Notes: generated by a model from the letters alone, not told the origin. Counted from the first letter of the stretch, positions 12,415 through 57,439 are shown. The stretch: DNA of 64,000 nucleotides from an uncultured Alphaproteobacteria bacterium (GCA_963697025.1 CAVOMM010000008.1:263741-327740), one strand, 5' to 3'. Numbers and translations are program-made.

Positions 12415-13782
12415 ATGTCCTTCACCGTCGCCATCGTCGGCCGGCCCAATGTCGGCAAATCGACGCTGTTCAATCGGCTGGTCGGCCGCCGTCTGGCGCT
12501 GGTCGACGATCAACCGGGCGTGACGCGTGACCGCCGGGAAGGCGAGGCGAAGCTCGGTGATCTGACCTTCAAGGCGATCGATACCGCAGGCCTCGAAGAC
12601 GCCGAGCGCGAAAGCCTGTCGGCGCGAATGCAGGCGCAGACGGCGGCGGCTATAACGCAGGCGGATGCCGTGCTTTTTCTTTTCGATGCGCGTGCCGGTG
12701 CAACGGCGGAGGATCGCGCCTTTGCTAATCTCGTGCGCAAGTCGGCCAAGCCCGCGATCCTGGTCGCCAATAAGAGTGAGGGCCGCGCCGGGGAGGCGGG
12801 CGCGCTCGAAGCCTATGCGCTCGGCCTCGGCGAACCGATCGCGATCAGCGCCGAACACGGCGAGGGTTTGTCCGACCTCTACGATGCATTGCGTGCCGCG
12901 TTGCCCGCGGCGACGGCGGAGCGCGAGCCCGACGATAGTGCCGTTGCGGCTTCGGAGCAGGCGCCGATCCGCATTGCCATCGTCGGACGGCCGAATACCG
13001 GCAAGTCGACGCTGATCAACCGTCTGCTCGGCGAGGATCGGCTGTTGACCGGACCCGAGGCCGGCATCACGCGCGATGCGATCGCCGTCGATCTTAATTG
13101 GCACGACCATCGTTTCCGCGTTCACGACACGGCCGGCTTGCGCCGCCGCTCCCGGATCGAAGAGAAGCTGGAAAAGCTCTCCGTCGCCGACGCGCTCAAT
13201 GCCATCCGCTTTGCCGAAGTGGTCATCGTGCTGATCGATGCGCAGGCGCCGTTCGAGGAGCAGGATATCCGCATCGCCGATCTGGTCGAGCGGGAAGGGC
13301 GCGCGGTCGTCATCGCGGTCAACAAATGGGACCTGATCGAATCGGAAACCGGCGCGCTGTCGCGACTGCGCGGCGCGGTGGATCGGATGCTGCCGCAGAT
13401 CAAAGGCGTCCCGGTCGTCGTTCTTTCGGCGAAGCAGGGAAAGGGCGTCGATCGGCTGATGGAAGCGGTCTTGACGGCGCATGAAGTGTGGAACCGCCGG
13501 GCGCCGACGGCGGCGCTCAACCGGTTTTTGGCGCAGGCGACCGCGGCAAACCCGCCGCCGGCGCTGCGCGGCCGGCGGTTGCGGCTCGACTACATGACCC
13601 AGCCGAAAGCGCGGCCGCCGACCTTTGTCTTGTTTTCATCGCGGCCCAACGCGTTGCCCGAGACTTACCGCCGCTATCTGATCAACGGTTTGCGCGAGCA
13701 GTTTGCGCTGCCGGGCACGCCGATCCGGCTCACCATGCGGGCCAAGGCCAATCCTTATGCCGGGAAGAAACGCCGCCGCTGA
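12415..13782 (+). CDS. der: Ribosome-associated GTPase Der (EngA)
   Basis: Two tandem GTPase domains ([14 protein letters not shown] and [14 protein letters not shown]) plus a KH-like C-terminus. Confidence 0.95.
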
Positions 13783-13793
13783 AGTCGGCTGCG

Positions 13794-14534
13794 TCATGCC
13801 GGTGGCGTGAAGTGCAGAAGCTTGCCGGCAGGGAAATCGTAAAGCTTGCCGGTCTCCGTAAAGCTCGGCAGGCACAGATCGACGATTTTCTCCGCGACTT
13901 GTTCGGGCGTCGGCAGCGTCATCGGATCTTCGCCGGGCATGACCAAGGCGCGCATCCGGGTGCGCGTCGGGCCCGGATTGAACAGATTGACGCGCACTGC
14001 AGTCGAGGTCGTTTCATCGGCATAAGTCCGCGCCAGCGCGTTGAGCGCCGCCTTCGATACCGAATAGGGTCCGGCATAGGCGCGCGCGTTGGTCGCGGCG
14101 CCGGAGGTAATGAACACGGCACGGCCGGCGGTCGAGCGTTTGAGCAGTGGGTTCATGGCGCGGATCAGGTGCCAATTGGCGGTGACATTGACCGCCATGG
14201 TCTCGTCCCAGTTCTGCGGCTCGACGTGATCGAGCGGCGAGCGCTGGCCGACGACCCCGGCATTGCCGACCAGCACATCGAGCCGCTGATAGCGTTCGTT
14301 GAGCGAGGCGGCGAGCCGATAGAGGCCCGGATAATCGCGCATGTCGAGCGGCACCAGCGTCGCCGTACTGCCGGCCGCTTGTACCGCGTCGTCGATCTCT
14401 TCGAGCGCGCCTTGCGTGCGTCCGACCGCGACAACGTGGGCGCCCGCTCGCGCGAGCAACAGCGCCGTTGCGCGGCCAATGCCTCGCGTGGCGCCGGTGA
14501 CGAGCGCGATACGGTCAGCAAGTGGCTGCGTCAT
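13794..14534 (-). CDS. SDR-family oxidoreductase
   Basis: TGATRGIG Rossmann motif, NAG, and the catalytic YSVSK motif. Confidence 0.9.
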   Translation of the reverse strand: MTQPLADRIALVTGATRGIGRATALLLARAGAHVVAVGRTQGALEEIDDAVQAAGSTATLVPLDMRDYPGLYRLAASLNERYQRLDVLVGNAGVVGQRSPLDHVEPQNWDETMAVNVTANWHLIRAMNPLLKRSTAGRAVFITSGAATNARAYAGPYSVSKAALNALARTYADETTSTAVRVNLFNPGPTRTRMRALVMPGEDPMTLPTPEQVAEKIVDLCLPSFTETGKLYDFPAGKLLHFTPPA

Positions 14535-49615: not shown

Positions 49616-50785
49616 ATGAAACGCCGAACACTGCTCAAAGGCATGGCCGCGACTGCGGCGAGCGGCATGCTCGTCCGCCGCGCGGCCGCCGACAGCGTCC
49701 TTAAGATCGGCATCAGCATGCCGATCACCGGCGCCGGCTTCAACGCGGTCGGGCGTCAGCTGCAGGCGGCGCTGAAGCTTTACATGGTGCAGCACGGCGA
49801 CACGGTCGCCGGCCGCAAGATCGAGCTGATCATCCGCGACGACGGCGGCGCCGCCGATACTGCGCACCGGCTGATCCAGGAAATGATCGTCAACGACAAG
49901 GTCGACGTGCTCGGCATCGGCATCACGCCGACCGCGCTCGCCATTGCGCCGCTGGCGACCGAGGCCAAGAAGGTGACGCTGGTGATGAGCTCCGGCGCCT
50001 CGATCACCACCGCCAAATGTCCGTATTTCGTGCGCGCCGGCTTTCTGCTCAGCCAGCAGTCGTGGATTCTCGCCGAATGGGCGGCGAAGAACGGCTCGAG
50101 CCATGTCGTCAGCCTGGTCAACGACTGGGCGCCCGGCATCGAGGCGGAGACCGCGTTCAAGACCCGCTTCACCCAGGTCGGCGGCACCATCGTCGAAGCC
50201 ATCCGGCTGCCGCTCGCCAATCCCGACTTCGCGCCGTTCCTGCAGCGCATCGCGGATCTGAAGCCGGACACCGCTTTCATTTATTTCCCCGGCACTCAGG
50301 CGCCGATCTTCGCTAAGCAATTTGCCGAGCGCGGACTTGCCAAAACCGGCATAAAAATCATCGGGCCGGGCGACCTGACCGACGACGACGGCCTCAATGC
50401 CATGGGCGATCAGATGCTCGGCATGATCACCGCCGGGCCTTACTCCGCCGCGCACAATTCGCCGCTCAACAAGACCTATGTCGCCGGCATCGAGCAGGCC
50501 GGCCACTTCCGGCCGGATTTCGTCTCGCTCGGCGGCTATGACGGCCTGCATCTGCTCTACGAGGCGCTGAAAAAGACCAACGGCAATTCCGACGGCGACG
50601 CACTGATCGCGGCGATGAAAGGCATGGCTTTCGAAAGCCCGCGGGGCCCGATCTCGATCGACGCCGCGACGCGCGACATCGTCAACAATATCTACATCCG
50701 CAAGGTCGAGAAGATCGACGGGCAGCTCTGGAACACCGAGTTCCAGACCTACCCGAACGTGAAAGACCCGATGAAGAGTGGGTGA
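49616..50785 (+). CDS. ABC transporter substrate-binding protein (LivK/branched-chain amino acid-type family)
   Basis: Tat/Sec-like signal MKRRTLLKGMAATAASG and the type I periplasmic binding fold pattern (KIGISMPITG...). Strong GGGGAGG RBS. Confidence 0.85.
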   Translation: MKRRTLLKGMAATAASGMLVRRAAADSVLKIGISMPITGAGFNAVGRQLQAALKLYMVQHGDTVAGRKIELIIRDDGGAADTAHRLIQEMIVNDKVDVLGIGITPTALAIAPLATEAKKVTLVMSSGASITTAKCPYFVRAGFLLSQQSWILAEWAAKNGSSHVVSLVNDWAPGIEAETAFKTRFTQVGGTIVEAIRLPLANPDFAPFLQRIADLKPDTAFIYFPGTQAPIFAKQFAERGLAKTGIKIIGPGDLTDDDGLNAMGDQMLGMITAGPYSAAHNSPLNKTYVAGIEQAGHFRPDFVSLGGYDGLHLLYEALKKTNGNSDGDALIAAMKGMAFESPRGPISIDAATRDIVNNIYIRKVEKIDGQLWNTEFQTYPNVKDPMKSG

Positions 50786-50858
50786 GAATCTTCCAGGGCG
50801 ATGCTCTGAGCGCCACGTCGTTTGAATCAACTTGGTCAGCCATTTGGCGCGTAGCGCA

Positions 50859-50897
50859 GCGTCGGATGATAGTCCTTCTTGGACTGTCATCCGACGC
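50859..50897. other. 17-bp-stem hairpin (GCGTCGGATGATAGTCC-TTCTT-GGACTGTCATCCGACGC) ending 4 nt before the first CRISPR repeat
   Basis: The inverted repeat has a single T/C difference, which is a G-U pair in plus-strand RNA. Followed by TTCC. Confidence 0.5.
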
Positions 50898-50901
50898 TTC
50901 C

Positions 50902-51728
50902 GTTGCGGTTGGCTCTCAATCACCAGACCGCTAAGCTACATCCGATTATGCCACAGCCATAGTCGTAGTTGCGGTTGGCTCTCAATCACCAGACCGCTAA
51001 GCTGTTCATCGTGAGGCCGTTGCTGCCGCCGTAGTTGCGGTTGGCTCTCAATCACCAGACCGCTAAGCTGTCAATGCGGCGTACCGGCTGCAAGGGATGG
51101 TTGCGGTTGGCTCTCAATCACCAGACCGCTAAGCTGCCTTCGACGAGATGAAAAGCGCGATCGAGGTTGCGGTTGGCTCTCAATCACCAGACCGCTAAGC
51201 TAAGAACTTCAAGCTGGGCATCCGCGACGGGGTTGCGGTTGGCTCTCAATCACCAGACCGCTAAGCTCCAACTCGTGTGCGAGGGCCTCCCGCAGATGTT
51301 GCGGTTGGCTCTCAATCACCAGACCGCTAAGCTACCAACACCCAGGCCCGCCTCCCCATCGGCGTTGCGGTTGGCTCTCAATCACCAGACCGCTAAGCTC
51401 ATAGCGCGTGCCGGGCGACTCTCGCCAGTGTTGCGGTTGGCTCTCAATCACCAGACCGCTAAGCTCTGGGCAATGAGGTCCACCATGCCGGCGTAGTTGC
51501 GGTTGGCTCTCAATCACCAGACCGCTAAGCTGACCGCTACGCCGCGCTCGAGTCCGACGTGGTTGCGGTTGGCTCTCAATCACCAGACCGCTAAGCTCGC
51601 CATCCAAGGCGCCGACGGTGGAACAGGGTTGCGGTTGGCTCTCAATCACCAGACCGCTAAGCTCGTTGGCACTGCACATGTTAGCGGATCCTGTTGCGGT
51701 TGGCTCTCAATCACCAGACCGCTAAGCT
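50902..51728 (+). CRISPR. CRISPR array: 13 identical 36-bp repeats GTTGCGGTTGGCTCTCAATCACCAGACCGCTAAGCT, 12 spacers (eleven 30 bp, one 29 bp)
   Basis: Repeats start at 50902, 50968, 51034, 51100, 51166, 51232, 51298, 51364, 51430, 51496, 51562, 51628 and 51693. The plus strand is assigned because the tracrRNA anti-repeat (plus strand, 56496-56516) is complementary to the plus-strand repeat sequence. Confidence 0.97.
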
Positions 51729-51740
51729 CTCTATCTGCTT

Positions 51741-51766
51741 AAGGCCCTGGAAACGGGGCCTTTTTT
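51741..51766 (+). terminator. Rho-independent terminator after the last CRISPR repeat (AAGGCCCTG-GAAA-CGGGGCCTT + T-run)
   Basis: 9-bp stem including one G-U, a GAAA tetraloop, and a TTTTTT tract. It is 12 nt downstream of repeat 13 and oriented to stop plus-strand array transcripts before cas2. Confidence 0.6.
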
Positions 51767-51801
51767 CTTGATTGAGAGTATGAGCGACAAGCGCGGTCAA
51801 G

Positions 51802-52158
51802 TCAGAATAGGGCAAATTGCTCTGGGTTTTTTGGGCTCCGTTCACGGTTTCGGCCACGGTAGGTGTGGATATTCTCATATTGCTTATCCGTGATCGCAAG
51901 GATGTGCACTTTGCCAGCACTCGGCATTGCCTCCTCGATCCTGCGTTCGTAACTCTCGGCCTGTTCCTTTCCCGCGCAAAAGCGCAAGTAGACCGAATAT
52001 TGCGTCATTTCAAAACCGAGATCGAGGAGCTTCAATCGAAAGCGCGTCGCCGCCTTCCGCTCCTTGGCGGACCCTACGGGCAGATCGAAGAATACGCAGA
52101 GCCACATGATTCGATAACCCGATAAGGCGGCCGGAGCACCATTGCCACGCGCAGCCAC
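51802..52158 (-). CDS. cas2: CRISPR-associated endoribonuclease Cas2 (type II)
   Basis: LSGYRIMWLCVFFDLPVGSAKERKAATRFRLKLLDLGFEMTQYSVYLRF. The proposed GTG 52158 lies 2 nt after the cas1 stop; the track start at 52257 overlaps cas1. Confidence 0.85.
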   Translation of the reverse strand: MAARGNGAPAALSGYRIMWLCVFFDLPVGSAKERKAATRFRLKLLDLGFEMTQYSVYLRFCAGKEQAESYERRIEEAMPSAGKVHILAITDKQYENIHTYRGRNRERSPKNPEQFALF

Positions 52159-52160
52159 TC

Positions 52161-53060
52161 TCAGAACCCAAGCGGAAGTCCGGCCCGCGGGAAAACAAGC
52201 CGACCGACCTCCCCCGCGTAAGCCTTGGCGAGCGAATTGGCGAGCCGATCGAGACACGTCATCAATGGGCTCATTCCCTCTTCCGCCGGTAGATCAATCA
52301 CCATGATACGAGCGAGCGCGGCCTTGGCCTCGGAGGTGACCTCGGTGAGACCTTGCTCCTTGAGCCTGTGAACTTCGCGATCGACCAGCGGACGGAAGGG
52401 CTCCATCAGGTCGTCGATTAGGACGAACGAGTTGCCGCGGTTGGCATGCATCAACCCGAGGCTGGGATGCAATCCTGCCGCCATAACCGCACGCGCCGTG
52501 GCAGCCCGCAAAATGGCATAGCCGTAGTTCAGCAGACCGTTGACGCCGCTGCCATCGGTGTCGCGGCGAAACTCCCGTCCGAAAAGCAGTGGCCAGTATC
52601 TTCGCGCCGCTTCCGCCTCGACGTTCTGCGGGTCGCCCGGTCGCACCTTTCGTGCAAGCAGGCGGAAACCGCCAGCCTCGGCGCCGACCGTGGCCAACGT
52701 GGCGCCTTGCGCCAGGATCTTTGCTTGCACGATCTGCTGCCAAAGGCGCTTTTTCAGCGGGGCACTCGCCCGCGCCTGGTCGCTCATGCGGCCGGCCTGA
52801 GCATGATGGCCGTCGACCGGCCAAACCAAGGCGGCCGGCCGATGATTGGGTCCGCACAGCACGACCGGCACGCCGCGCGCCGCTAGTGTCACCATGAGAT
52901 TGTTCGAGTAGGTCAGGCCGTGCGCATTCGCGACGACGGCGGCAAGGTCGTCGAGCGGTATCCGGCCGACCTCCGCACCCTTCTCGGCGATGGTCAAAAA
53001 ACCACGCTCAACGGCCAAGTGCCGTCCATCCGTTGCGACCTCGACAACGCGTCCGACCAT
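52161..53060 (-). CDS. cas1: CRISPR-associated endonuclease Cas1 (type II)
   Basis: 299 aa with NGLLNYGYAILRAATARAVMAAGLHPSLGLMHANRGNSFVLIDDLMEPFRPLVD, which covers the Cas1 catalytic-core region. Confidence 0.95.
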   Translation of the reverse strand: MVGRVVEVATDGRHLAVERGFLTIAEKGAEVGRIPLDDLAAVVANAHGLTYSNNLMVTLAARGVPVVLCGPNHRPAALVWPVDGHHAQAGRMSDQARASAPLKKRLWQQIVQAKILAQGATLATVGAEAGGFRLLARKVRPGDPQNVEAEAARRYWPLLFGREFRRDTDGSGVNGLLNYGYAILRAATARAVMAAGLHPSLGLMHANRGNSFVLIDDLMEPFRPLVDREVHRLKEQGLTEVTSEAKAALARIMVIDLPAEEGMSPLMTCLDRLANSLAKAYAGEVGRLVFPRAGLPLGF

Positions 53061-53144
53061 CGCGGCCTACGTCTGTTGCGTCCATCCGCGCATCCGCGCA
53101 GATTGGAAGGTTGCGGCGAAGTCAGGCCGCGAGCAACGATTGCG

Positions 53145-56100
53145 TTAGCCTTTGGTTAACGCCTCTGTCTGAATGCGCCACGGGCGGCCGAGTTCATCAA
53201 CGCGGACTGGGACCGCGCCCATAGCTTTGAGCGTGCCGTATGAGGCCATCAGCCAGCGGAACGGGTCGATCTCATTGTCCGTCGCGTGCCGGCGATCCAG
53301 ATTGCCAGTCTCGTTATGCGGTGCGAGTTTGAATTGTCGTGCCGCCGCGTCGAGACGGTGAACCACCATGATTTCGGTCTTGCCATCGTTCTCAAGCCGG
53401 ATGAGATCGCCTTTGTGGACACGCATGACAAGCTTGGCATGCGGTTGCTCCTGTCGCCAACGCGGTCCGTTGCCGATTTGGTTGGCGTCGAAACGACGCA
53501 CCGCCTCGCCGTTCCATCTTCCATCTGGCGTCTCAAATATCTCGATGCAAAAATTCTCGCCGGCTGAATAGGCTTTATATGGCGCACCGGTTCGCCGATC
53601 GCGCACTGCCACGAGATATTCGGCCTTCTCAGGTTTTAGCAAGCGCACCCGACGCAGGCCGTGCCTGATGTGCGGGTCGTCGGTCTTGGCGTGCAGCTTG
53701 CGCAACGCATCCGCAAGCGCAATGCCGTTGGCTTTTTCGGCAGTGACATGCGCATGCACCATGTCACGCAGCCGGCGGTCGCGAATGCGCCCGATCTCGT
53801 TCTCATTGAGCGCCTCGATGGGCTTTCGATAGACCAGGTTCGCACCCTCCATTTCCGGCTCCTTCACAAAACCGTAGGCGGTATCCTCGTGGAGTTTGCC
53901 CCCAATGCCATGGTCGGGCTTGTGCGAGACCACCATCCGTTCGAGAGCCGCCTTGAGGTCTTCGCGCAGCTTTTCCTTGTCCCAAGGCGTCGGTATTTCG
54001 ATCTTTTCCCGCTCGTCGTCATAGGCATTCGCCATCTTCCACAACAGCGAACGGTCGGTGAGCGCAGCCACCAAGCCGTCGATGGCATGATGGCGGTGAT
54101 CCGCGCGGTTCTTGACGCCGGAAAATTCCATGGCGTCGGTCGCCGCCAGAAAGTCTTCGGCTTTGTCCTGCACGCCGGCATAGTTATGGTCCGGCAAGAG
54201 GGAATTGAGACCCCACTTACCGCGGATCATCGACGTGAGCCGGCCCGGCACGACCCAGATGTTGTAGGGATTGGTTACAGCGCCGAGATATTGTTTGGCC
54301 AACCTTGCTAGCCATCCGGTCTCGTTGAGTTGGCGGTTGAGAAATCCGCCTCTTTTCTCAAACTGCTCGCGGGCGTCGGCATCGAAGCGCCAGCGCTTGT
54401 TCTTGGGCAGCAACGCCGCACGCGCGGCAATCTCGTCCCATCGGTAGGTAAAGCCATCGATCGTTGGGTTCGACCCGAACGCTTTGTAGGGCCACTGTTT
54501 ACGCTTGGCGCGGTTTGCATAGCGCATGCAGACCGTCTTGTTCGCCGCGCTGTCGTCGAGGCTTTCCTTGAACGGAGCCAGATGCTCGATTTCGACCTCG
54601 TCGGACATCAGTCGGGCAAGCCCGATCTGTTCGCCAGTGAATGGACACTTGCGATCGAGCGAATCCCGGGGATTTAATTCTTCCCACAATCGCATCTTGA
54701 GCATATTGCGCGGCGAAGCTGGCAGGCCATGCTCTGCAAGGTCCTTGGCGCGGGCCTCGTTTCTTTCCTGATTGCGCTGCTGTTGGCGCTGATACTCTAT
54801 TTTTTCTCGCGGAGACAGCTTGAGGGCGCGAGTAAATTCGATGGCGATTTCGGTTGGGGGACCGAAGTCGTCGATCAGGCCGTTGACCAGACGGCGGAGC
54901 TGGCCGAGCCCGATGTGGACTGTGGGATTTGGCAGCCGACCGAAGCGCTTCTCATTGGGTTCGCGTTTGTCGCCGCTGCCAACAACCGCGTCGGACAGCC
55001 ATTCACCGTAATAGGGCAACTTGTCGAGTATTTCGCCGGTCGGCAGCTTGGCGTGATCGCCGAATATTTCTGTGGCGGCTTCGTCGTAACGCAGGCCGCC
55101 TTCCATCAACGGCAGGAGCTTCTTGATGGCGCGCAGTCCGAGCCTGCAATGACCGTCTGGCAATGCCGCATCGGCGATTTTTTCGGCTCTCTCTGCATCG
55201 ACGTTGCATTTGCCTTTCAGCCACAGCGCCAGTTCGATTTCATCGGCCTCGTTGAGCAATTGCTCAATGATCGCGATCTGCCGTTCGACGTCAAGACCGC
55301 GCCAAGTTTTACCAAATAGCGCCTTGTGCGAGAGCCGTGCCGCGGTCTCGTCCCCATTGAGCACCTGGCGCCGCTCGGACTCCAGGTTGAATTTTGCTTC
55401 GGCGGGAAGTTTAAGGAGCGTTCGCAGCTTGTCGAATTTCACTTCCTTGTTCTGCAGCAAAGCGAGCGCGACAAGGTCGCCTTGCTCTTTTGTCAGTTTC
55501 CTCATTGTCCGGCCGGCTTGGCCGACTTCGAGATTGCGCGCCTCCTGATAGATACGGAAGCGCTGCGTGAGCGGATGCGCCCACGGGCATCGGTAGCCTT
55601 CCGGGTCTTTCTCGAACGGCTCCGTTGCCGGATCAAGTGAGCACTTTCCGACCGGCGGCTGTTTCAAGGGGCGTTGATAGAAGATGATTTTGCTTATCTG
55701 TTCTTCCGCGGCTTCCGTCATCGTGGGGTGGTGAGGCGCTTGCGCAGTCCAGATCGCGTCGAACTCGGATTGCAGCAGGTCGCGCGTCGGATAGAAGTCG
55801 TAGGTCGCCTTGGGACCGCTCGACGTGTTACGGGCGCGCACGCCTTCGCGCTTGCGGTGACGGTGCCACAGGAATTCTCCAAGCGTGCGAGCATTCTCAG
55901 CCTGCATCGCTTCCTTGAGCCTGCTTGCGCCCTGCTTGATCGCGCCTTTGTCGTCCTCCTTCTTGTCCGCCTTGCGATTGGAGAGGAAACCGCGGCGCTG
56001 ATTGAGATGGAAAAGTGTCCGCCCGATATGGTGAGCGGGTAGGGGACTATCGAGAGCGTTCGCGCGCAGCTCGTAGGGATCGAACGCCTCCAGCGCCTTT

Positions 56101-56411
56101 CGCTCTTTCGCGTCCTCCGGCATCAGACCATGACCGACGAGTGCATCCATCAATTCGGTGCGGCGGCCGAAATATCGATCAGCGAAACGGTCGCGGCGTC
56201 TGCGGGCACTTCGGGCGGTGCGGCGGTCGACGGCGTTCGACGTTCCCGATTGCGGGTCGCGCCCGTCGGGAAAGACGCGCACCCCACCGCGGCCGAGACT
56301 GGTCGGCCGCCAGTGATCGCCATTGCGTTCCAACAAAACCGTGAACCAACCGAGCGAGTTTGTCCCAAGGTCCAGGCCCAGACGATACGGTCGTGCCATA
56401 TTATGAGCCAT
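53145..56411 (-). CDS. cas9: Type II-C CRISPR-associated endonuclease Cas9 (1088 aa from ATG 56411)
   Basis: RuvC-I YRLGLDLGTNSLGW; Arg-rich bridge helix RRTARSARRRRDRFADR; RuvC-II EIAIEFTRAL; HNH EVEIEHLAPFKESLDDSAANKTVCMRYANRAKRKQWPY; RuvC-III DHRHHAIDGLVAAL. GAGGG RBS 5 nt before ATG 56411. Confidence 0.95.
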   Translation of the reverse strand: MAHNMARPYRLGLDLGTNSLGWFTVLLERNGDHWRPTSLGRGGVRVFPDGRDPQSGTSNAVDRRTARSARRRRDRFADRYFGRRTELMDALVGHGLMPEDAKERKALEAFDPYELRANALDSPLPAHHIGRTLFHLNQRRGFLSNRKADKKEDDKGAIKQGASRLKEAMQAENARTLGEFLWHRHRKREGVRARNTSSGPKATYDFYPTRDLLQSEFDAIWTAQAPHHPTMTEAAEEQISKIIFYQRPLKQPPVGKCSLDPATEPFEKDPEGYRCPWAHPLTQRFRIYQEARNLEVGQAGRTMRKLTKEQGDLVALALLQNKEVKFDKLRTLLKLPAEAKFNLESERRQVLNGDETAARLSHKALFGKTWRGLDVERQIAIIEQLLNEADEIELALWLKGKCNVDAERAEKIADAALPDGHCRLGLRAIKKLLPLMEGGLRYDEAATEIFGDHAKLPTGEILDKLPYYGEWLSDAVVGSGDKREPNEKRFGRLPNPTVHIGLGQLRRLVNGLIDDFGPPTEIAIEFTRALKLSPREKIEYQRQQQRNQERNEARAKDLAEHGLPASPRNMLKMRLWEELNPRDSLDRKCPFTGEQIGLARLMSDEVEIEHLAPFKESLDDSAANKTVCMRYANRAKRKQWPYKAFGSNPTIDGFTYRWDEIAARAALLPKNKRWRFDADAREQFEKRGGFLNRQLNETGWLARLAKQYLGAVTNPYNIWVVPGRLTSMIRGKWGLNSLLPDHNYAGVQDKAEDFLAATDAMEFSGVKNRADHRHHAIDGLVAALTDRSLLWKMANAYDDEREKIEIPTPWDKEKLREDLKAALERMVVSHKPDHGIGGKLHEDTAYGFVKEPEMEGANLVYRKPIEALNENEIGRIRDRRLRDMVHAHVTAEKANGIALADALRKLHAKTDDPHIRHGLRRVRLLKPEKAEYLVAVRDRRTGAPYKAYSAGENFCIEIFETPDGRWNGEAVRRFDANQIGNGPRWRQEQPHAKLVMRVHKGDLIRLENDGKTEIMVVHRLDAAARQFKLAPHNETGNLDRRHATDNEIDPFRWLMASYGTLKAMGAVPVRVDELGRPWRIQTEALTKG

Positions 56412-56479
56412 CGCAGCCCTCGTGCGAATTCTCGTTGACGAAGGCATCAAACCATCTCACACTTACTACGTGCAAGCGT

Positions 56480-56580
56480 CTCGGGAACCGAAAGACTTAG
56501 CGGTCTGGTGATTGAGGGCCTCCCGTTAACAAGCGAATGCACAAAATGGGGCGGGCTGCGGCCCGCCCCTTCCTATTTCG
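56480..56580 (+). ncRNA. Predicted tracrRNA (anti-repeat 56493-56530, terminator hairpin 56548-56569)
   Basis: CTTAGCGGTCTGGTGATTGAG (56496-56516) is the perfect reverse complement of repeat nt 14-34. Pairing continues with bulges to repeat nt 1 (..GGCCTCCCGTTAAC), followed by AAGCG.. and GGGGCGGGC-TGCG-GCCCGCCCC + TTCCTATTTCG. The 5' and 3' ends are not defined; an alternative 3' end lies at the weak hairpin + T5 at 56592-56616. Confidence 0.75.
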
Positions 56581-56644
56581 TTATCCGGTTTTGCGCCCGG
56601 ACACTCGCGCATTTTTCCCTGGGTTTCGCTTCGCTCAACCCAGG

Positions 56645-57439
56645 CTATGGAATGCTCACATTATCGATCAACCGCATCGTCCCGATCCGTGCCGCCACCA
56701 GAAGCCGGATCGGCTCAACCGCCGACGCGGCGAGCGGCGCGAGCGTCTCGGCGTTGCGGGCTTCGAGGTAATCTAGCGCGAAGCCGGCGCGGGTAATCGC
56801 TTCCCGGCCGTCGTCGAGCACGGCCTCGACCGGGCCCCCGGCCTTGATCCGCCCGGCGCACTCCTTGAGCACGCGATAAAGCGCCGGCGCCGCGGCGCGT
56901 TCGTCCGGCGTGAGGTAGCGGTTGCGCGACGACAGCGCCAGGCCGTCCTTTTCGCGCACGATCGGCGCAGCGACGATGCGGGTCTTTAGCCCCAGATCGC
57001 GGGCAAGCCGGGTGACCACTTTGAGCTGCTGGTAGTCTTTCTCGCCGAACAGCGCGATATCCGGTTCGCATTGGATCAAAAGTTTGGCGACCACGGTCGC
57101 CACGCCGGCGAAGAAATGCGGCCGGAAAGCGTCTTCGAGGCCGGCCGTGGCCGAGCCTTCGGGCACAATTCGGGTGGCAAAGCCTTCCGGGTACATGGTT
57201 TCGACCGACGGCGCCCAGACGAGGTCGGCCTTCAGCTCCTTGAGTGCGGCAAGGTCGGCGGACCAGGTGCGCGGATAGGTGCGCAAATCTTCGTTTGGCG
57301 CAAACTGCGTCGGGTTGACGAAGATCGAGACGATGACCCGGTCGGCGCGGGCTTGCGCGATCTTCACCAGCGCAAAATGGCCGGCGTGCAAGGCGCCCAT
57401 GGTCGGCACCAGCGCAATGCTGCGCCGCCGCGCGCGCAA
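56645..57439 (-). CDS. panC: Pantoate-beta-alanine ligase
   Basis: [32 protein letters not shown], and SSRN motifs. Only a TTG start at 57439 is in frame (see findings). Confidence 0.9.

Follow-up and report, generated by a model that had tools for sequence, protein, structure and literature searches.

A repeat-spacer array lies beside cas9, cas1 and cas2 in a 64,000-nucleotide stretch of alphaproteobacterial DNA (the window), and raises the question of which strand is read and whether crRNA transcription starts in every repeat or once, ahead of the whole array. The explanation preferred here, with rather more confidence than doubt, is a working II-C array of the Neisseria/Campylobacter design that is read on the plus strand, with a promoter in each repeat and acquisition of new spacers on the cas2 side. 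Coordinates of the features are given in Table 1.

Table 1. Features of the CRISPR-Cas locus, numbered from the first nucleotide of the window
Feature	Coordinates	Strand	Description
CRISPR-Cas island	50787-56656		5.87 kb, bounded by a soil-metagenome empty-site contig
18-bp hairpin	50858-50898	+	ends 4 nt before repeat 1; dG -40.3 kcal/mol, z -8.5
CRISPR array	50902-51728	+ (crRNA sense)	13 repeats of 36 nt each and 12 spacers
Repeat 1	50902-50937	+	cas-distal, unmutated
-35-like hexamer TTGGCT	50909-50914	+	repeat nt 8-13; recurs every 66 nt, in all 13 repeats
GC-extended -10-like box GCTAAGCT	50930-50937	+	repeat nt 29-36; in all 13 repeats
Repeat 13	51693-51728	+	cas2-side
12-nt variable linker and intrinsic terminator	51729-51768	+	stem 51741-51762, T run; between array and cas2 end; dG -17.6, z -2.6
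cas2	51802-52257	-	longest ORF; Pfam CRISPR_Cas2 match at residues 51-129
cas1	52161-53060	-	Pfam Cas_Cas1
cas9	53145-56411	-	1088 aa; Pfam RuvC_III, HNH_4, Cas9_a
tracrRNA (predicted extent)	56494-56579	+	anti-repeat 56494-56529, nexus-like short stem, terminator hairpin 56548-56569, U-rich tail

The repeats start 66 nt apart, with 65 nt for the last interval. Eleven of the 12 spacers are 30 nt long and S12 is 29 nt. A 20-nt probe taken from the repeat matched 13 times, against 0.01 matches expected from shuffles. By whole-genome comparison the 5.17-Mb genome holds no second array of this kind, the sole extra match being the anti-repeat. An earlier note, made from the window alone, had described 13 perfectly identical repeats without a degenerate terminal copy, together with a list of spacers and their lengths. 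All copies were found to be the same, neither end of the array carries a degenerate repeat, and the spacer sequences read exactly as listed there. The locus is a real, intact type II-C CRISPR array.

The class is given by the gene set and by the adjoining elements. cas9, cas1 and cas2 form the complete cas set; no csn2, cas4 or other cas gene was found in the locus by Pfam search and in the ORF list, the flanking genes being a binding-protein gene and panC. They are adjoined by the array and by a predicted tracrRNA that includes the anti-repeat. Among solved structures the best matches of the Cas9 are to N. meningitidis Cas9 (6jdq, 8ja0; E 5e-52), ahead of the II-A enzymes, which places the protein, by sequence comparison, in the II-C clade. 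The true start of cas2 is probably further in than that of the longest ORF, since the Pfam match spans only part of it.

The anti-repeat stands immediately 5' of cas9, in divergent orientation, and is complementary to repeat nt 5-34 at 27 of 30 bases. In ∼16 related loci the repeat-sense strand shows the order anti-repeat, short stem, GC-rich hairpin and U-rich tail. Substitutions in the terminal hairpin are compensatory, and the genes next to it differ among the loci; a hairpin kept in this way is part of the tracrRNA rather than of panC. No Rfam family matched the tracrRNA or the hairpins. A plus-strand reading of the array, from 50902 towards cas2 and opposite to the cas genes, is well supported by these comparisons and is regarded as very probable.

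Reading on the minus strand, in continuation of the cas9-cas1-cas2 operon and with a tracrRNA that is also minus-strand, was considered as an alternative. Transcripts of the cas genes may enter the array, the terminator that follows cas2 having no U tract in that direction, and the repeat folds slightly better as a hairpin on that strand. However, a minus-strand anti-repeat would run straight into the start of cas9 with no terminator between, whereas a hairpin and U tail stand 3' of the anti-repeat on the plus strand only, across the same ∼16 loci. G-U pairs of the plus-sense duplex also turn into A-C mismatches: over eight distinct repeat/anti-repeat pairs, the positions that are not Watson-Crick comprised 18 that form G-U in the plus sense only and three in the minus sense only. 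Known type II repeats begin with GTT in the crRNA sense, and the 5' end of the present repeat is GTTG, the same as that of the N. meningitidis (Nme) repeat. Repeat sense was opposite to cas9 in 17 of 17 related loci having an array. A minus-strand reading is considered very improbable.

The earlier note had likewise placed the anti-repeat on the plus strand and had proposed transcription from 50902 to 51728, against cas9-cas1-cas2. The anti-repeat was located as listed in Table 1, and the order of the tracrRNA elements, the G-U asymmetry, the conserved terminator and the decay of cas-distal repeats (the last two described below) all agree with that direction. Its statement that characterised II-C loci are read opposite to the cas operon agrees with the literature (PMC3737331, PMC3656092); the Nme and C. 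jejuni arrays are both transcribed in this manner (PMC3737331).

The array would thus be transcribed convergently with cas9-cas1-cas2, and each crRNA would consist of the 3' part of a spacer and the 5' part of the next repeat. The repeat part would pair with the plus-strand tracrRNA, and the duplex could be cut by the host RNase III. A gene for RNase III is present in the genome, so crRNA 3' processing is available.

It is plausible, and on the sequence evidence reasonably probable, that each repeat drives its own transcription from a weak promoter. Most likely this would be a housekeeping-sigma promoter composed of TTGGCT, 15 nt and the GC-extended -10 box GCTAAGCT, from which transcription would start ∼5-7 nt inside the following spacer, with predicted guides of ∼24-26 nt, by analogy with C. 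jejuni (position 5 of the spacer, PMC3656092) and N. meningitidis (6th nt, PMC12477760). TTG (repeat nt 8-10)-N18-GCTA is present in each of the 13 repeats. The motif TTG-N17-19-GCTA was found upstream of eight of the 49 tRNA genes of the genome, five of them at N18. This is a ∼40-fold enrichment, with ∼0.19 occurrences expected from the genome-wide rate in the 3920 nt searched. All eight tRNA promoters with the motif read GCTAT, and the repeat reads GCTAA. In Bradyrhizobium japonicum, a member of the same family, an extended -10 of GCTATA was mapped by dRNA-seq and the GC extension was verified by mutagenesis (PMC4842269). A genome-wide scan for TTG-Nk-GCTA with k = 10-28 gave no peak at promoter spacing and was uninformative because coding sequence swamps the signal.

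Conservation of the box was followed in the repeat variants of the family. GCTA is invariant and GCTA-N3-T is kept in nearly all variants, one ending in CC and one being without T36; the ends of relatives' repeats include GCTATAGT and GCTAAAAT. Repeat nt 33-35 show free variation and for the most part do not pair with the tracrRNA. Against the promoter reading, the TTG at nt 8-10 falls in the bulge of the repeat:anti-repeat duplex, and Cas9 may read this bulge. The conservation of GTTG...GCTA...T could instead stem from recognition of the repeat ends by Cas1-Cas2, or from the RNase III duplex. In the relative that has lost T36 (L095, G108:C7, array at 12848-14184), the repeat is 35 nt long with a period of 65, and the 36th base differs from unit to unit.

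The box itself is weak. Its hexamer TAAGCT agrees with the TATAAT consensus at only three of six positions and lacks a TG extension, and of the -10 boxes in the family it is the weakest and the lowest in A+T. No promoter site was found in the array by an E. coli-type scan. The weak hexamer, the empty scan and the loss of T36 in one relative would suit a different source of crRNA, namely a single long plus-strand precursor that is transcribed from upstream and whose maturation, like that of type II-A arrays, relies only on tracrRNA, RNase III and trimming of the 5' end. Such a precursor would arise by read-through from the binding-protein gene that ends at 50785, which is co-directional with the array, or from an unrecognised promoter in 50787-50857. 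The promoter-like letters of the repeat would then be kept for recognition by the integrase or in the RNase III duplex, and the presence of RNase III is in keeping with maturation of this kind. However, the motif in the repeat genuinely marks promoters of this genome, and a comparison of related loci gave no conserved canonical promoter upstream of the array. Both characterised II-C arrays use repeat promoters; these promoters, with starts at spacer nt 5-6, were established experimentally in C. jejuni (PMC3656092) and N. meningitidis (PMC12477760). The long precursor is considered possible but somewhat unlikely, and further evidence bearing on it is given below with the first repeat and the upstream hairpin.

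Repeat-embedded promoters had been proposed in the earlier note from an alignment of the repeat end with that of Neisseria. The alignment was confirmed: nt 1-4, 29-32 (GCTA) and 36 (T) are identical in the repeat of N. meningitidis 8013 (PMC12477760), and the GCTA-N3-T positions are those of the Nme TGCTACAAT box. The argument that was drawn from T-A-N3-T held only in part. The letters align, but this is not the strongest argument here, since the tRNA promoters of the genome do not keep a fixed T at -7; a better one is TTG-N18-GCTA, in which the -10 is GC-extended as in Bradyrhizobium and Caulobacter (PMC4842269). The proposal of promoters in the repeats gains from this motif, from its enrichment at tRNA genes and from the Nme-homologous box, and is qualified by the three weaknesses named above.

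The age order of the array was judged from the end repeats of 18 related arrays. The last repeat, on the cas2 side, was unmutated in all of them, bar the locus with nt 36 varying throughout. The cas-distal repeat was degenerate in seven of the 18, and two more carried a decayed extra copy upstream. The restriction of degenerate repeats to the cas-distal end is indirect evidence that this end is the old one and that spacers are acquired at the cas2 side, where new ones would be inserted at repeat 13. Repeat 1 would then be the oldest and first-transcribed repeat, an 'extra' copy without a spacer of its own, and the oldest spacer would adjoin it. In Neisseria, acquisition takes place at the leader-adjacent repeat (PMC12477760), and the same is stated for II-C systems generally (PMC12080349). 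A comparison of 394 spacers from 24 loci found none in common between loci by which acquisitions might have been ordered.

The decay of the first repeat is uneven. Of 30 mutated positions, 26 fall in nt 1-11 and one in nt 29-36, and in one locus just the 3' 26 nt of the old repeat survive. Retention of the 3' end is expected if it drives the crRNA of spacer 1. By this comparison the first repeat appears to lose its crRNA-making part and to retain the would-be promoter part that serves the oldest spacer. Decay of the 5' end with the 3' end kept argues against a long precursor, under which, moreover, the newest spacers would be the farthest from the promoter.

The 18-bp hairpin upstream of the array leaves just 4 nt ahead of repeat 1, a position that, with its conservation, also counts against incoming transcription of a long precursor; it has no U tract, however, and may not terminate. 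It is kept in four same-genus loci, in which seven of the 18 pairs have changed on both sides and none is broken. Its one G-U pair is possible on the plus strand only. Relatives without the hairpin have a 5'-mutated first repeat in its place. In a survey of >650 II-C arrays (Feussner et al. 2025, PMC12080349), the first transcribed repeat was the spacerless one, and three devices were described against its extraneous crRNA: a terminator upstream, a hairpin in which the 25-nt guide position is sequestered, or mutation of the first repeat itself (PMC12080349). The 25 nt that immediately precede the first transcribed repeat, in which that survey looked for a helix and which are the guide position of an extraneous crRNA, contain the 3' arm of the present hairpin (50881-50898). 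The hairpin fits this published device, and would either block incoming transcription or trap the guide of the spacerless 'extraneous' crRNA.

The second hairpin follows the array. The same terminator hairpin stands exactly 12 nt past the last repeat in ∼15 related loci (L082, L083, L085-L087, L089-L095, L097-L099), in which the 12 linker nucleotides themselves vary. It is missing in Rhodopseudomonas palustris XCP (L088) and R. pentothenatexigens JA575 (L096). The terminator would stop transcripts of the array and of the last repeat before an antisense run into cas2. Speculatively, the fixed 12-nt distance suggests a possible second role for it as a component of the acquisition leader. In a wider form of this idea, the terminator would be a leader element that places Cas1-Cas2 for polarised integration and silences the promoter of the last repeat, and the promoter within the repeat would have exchanged the TG-extended box known from Neisseria for the GC-extended one preferred by the alphaproteobacterial host polymerase; this is put forward as a long shot.

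The II-C array architecture found here, including its polarity and the upstream hairpin, is already in the literature. As far as the available accounts of the N. meningitidis system go (Zhang et al. 2013 via PMC5965381; PMC12477760), the two loci share cas9-cas1-cas2 as the only cas genes, a 36-nt repeat and 30-nt spacers, an array opposite to the cas operon, and the GTTG start, GCTA and final T of the repeat. The acquisition leader of Nme lies at the transcription-distal, cas2-side repeat (PMC5965381; PMC12477760), the position predicted for the present array. In contrast, the repeats are identical at only 17 of 36 positions, and the -10 is GC-extended here (CGCTAAGCT) with a TTG at -35 spacing, whereas that of Nme is TG-extended (TGCTACAAT). 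A further difference is the short tracrRNA of the present locus, which has one terminal hairpin and is oriented away from cas9. For Nme, those accounts demonstrated where transcription starts and that the promoters are active; for the present repeats both are predictions.

The C. jejuni system (Dugar et al. 2013, PMC3656092) is similar in having a -10-like box at the end of each repeat (GGTAAAAT in C. jejuni) and a structure directly upstream of the first repeat (PMC3656092). There, primary transcripts start at spacer position 5, and the 3' end is formed by RNase III with tracrRNA (PMC3656092). It differs in its AT-rich host and near-consensus -10, and in having an upstream U-tract terminator and a mutated first repeat, where the present locus has a hairpin without a U tract and an intact first repeat. 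The likeness to the arrays surveyed by Feussner et al. 2025 (PMC12080349) is that the hairpin at 50858-50898 covers the extraneous-crRNA guide position; the 18-bp stem and genus-wide covariation are stronger here than for the 8-bp helices of the survey, and the role of the present hairpin is a predicted one. With the alphaproteobacterial GC-extended -10 (B. japonicum motif III, and Caulobacter housekeeping promoters cited in PMC4842269) the repeat has TTG, the usual spacing and GCTA in common, but the verified consensus continues GCTATA, whereas the repeat reads GCTAAG. An alphaproteobacterial-style GC-extended -10 in place of the Neisseria TG-extended box is the small twist that this locus would add.

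Current understanding of CRISPR biology is unchanged by the locus. It provides a clean, complete example of a Neisseria-type II-C system from soil Alphaproteobacteria that are GC-rich (Xanthobacteraceae as broadly defined, with Bradyrhizobium, Rhodopseudomonas and Nitrobacter included), in which the promoter-like box of the repeat obeys the GC-extended -10 rule of the host and not the enteric TATAAT. It is a simple test case for the generality of II-C repeat promoters and for their possible adaptation to the polymerase of the host. Tool builders may find the compact 1088-aa Cas9 and the short, fully predictable tracrRNA of interest.

Spacer targets were sought in phages, plasmids and genomes. 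An array BLAST against 50,697 phage records gave no target, with only 24/26 chance matches to mycobacteriophages (E 3). BLAST against 72,556 plasmids gave none either, the only hits being a related mini-array of Nitrobacter hamburgensis X14 and chance matches. No spacer matched elsewhere in the 5.17-Mb genome, and no convincing match was found in 176 genus and 400 family genomes. In IMG/VR, exact 22-23-mers of S1, S4, S9 and S12 (four of the 12 spacers scanned) had no match. The earlier note, which had seen no match elsewhere in the window, was right for the whole genome too; the searches it suggested against phages, plasmids and the genome itself returned no target and no self-targeting match.

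The best partial matches (25-26/30) sit in ordinary chromosomal genes and do not exceed chance level. A 26/30 match of S4 inside a YhdP-like gene and 23-25/30 matches of S10 were set aside as chance level or too weak. In two genomes of the family (L080, L081), S5 (51202-51231) matched at 25/30 within a conserved segment of genes for LivK-type binding proteins, which was rejected as too weak. For the arrays of three relatives, no usable protospacer was found in plasmids, phages and genus genomes. Without protospacers no PAM could be inferred, so the PAM side gave no help in confirming the strand.

Spacer turnover is nevertheless evident from sequence comparison. The closest relative, with a Cas9 that is 87% identical, has the identical repeat and shares no spacer, and on contigs from soil metagenomes this repeat alternates with other spacers. 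The metagenome comparison used DNA contigs from four runs, which hold no strand or end information. The earlier suggestion of recent or ongoing activity is supported by the intact cas genes and by the different spacers of the nearest relative, and the absence of any target found for the spacers leaves it short of full support; ongoing activity is plausible on this evidence.

The locus is an inserted unit. On a soil-metagenome contig from a related strain, position 50786 was joined to 56657 with 13 other letters between, and from this empty site the whole of 50787-56656 was recognised as an insertion between the LivK-type binding-protein gene and panC. Five of the 176 genus genomes searched, the present one included, have an array whose repeat is the same or nearly so, and a sample of 400 family genomes gave Cas9 relatives in 27. 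The relatives comprise Xanthobacteraceae MAGs, R. palustris XCP, R. pentothenatexigens, R. rhenobacensis, Nitrobacter winogradskyi, Bradyrhizobium sp. RDM12 and Tardiphaga MAGs.

Absence of the island from a closely related soil strain, its presence in so few genus genomes and the lack of a target for any of the 12 spacers would be in line with a recently transferred passenger, silent or inactive, whose neat repeats reflect a young insertion. Against this, all three cas genes are full length, the nearest relative combines an identical repeat with entirely different spacers, and further spacers stand between the same repeats on metagenome contigs. The four RNA elements of the locus are all conserved, and the accessory ones are under purifying and compensatory selection. 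An inactive passenger is considered improbable, and a working array is preferred.

Several further observations were made in the relatives. The Rhodopseudomonas-type Cas9 of three genomes (L012, L013, L014) matched in two pieces, residues 3-186 and 167-1084, and one internal TAA was reported for it in the three genomes, which may reflect a broken gene or an inserted-segment artefact. Plasmid 1 of N. hamburgensis X14 carries two degenerate related repeats near a transposase gene (L009 1292-1395). The cas9 that this plasmid also carries (L045) has no array within 14 kb, in agreement with Chylinski et al. 2013. In R. rhenobacensis DSM 12706 (L099/L041) a second array with the same repeat lies inverted, ∼0.9 kb from the main array at its cas-distal end. 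In the present locus, an 8-mer ACGTGCAA in the segment 56462-56480, between cas9 and the tracrRNA, is kept in relatives. On the cas9 strand ACGTGCAA reads TTGCAC, with TTTGAT 18 nt further on, and these constitute a candidate cas9 promoter.
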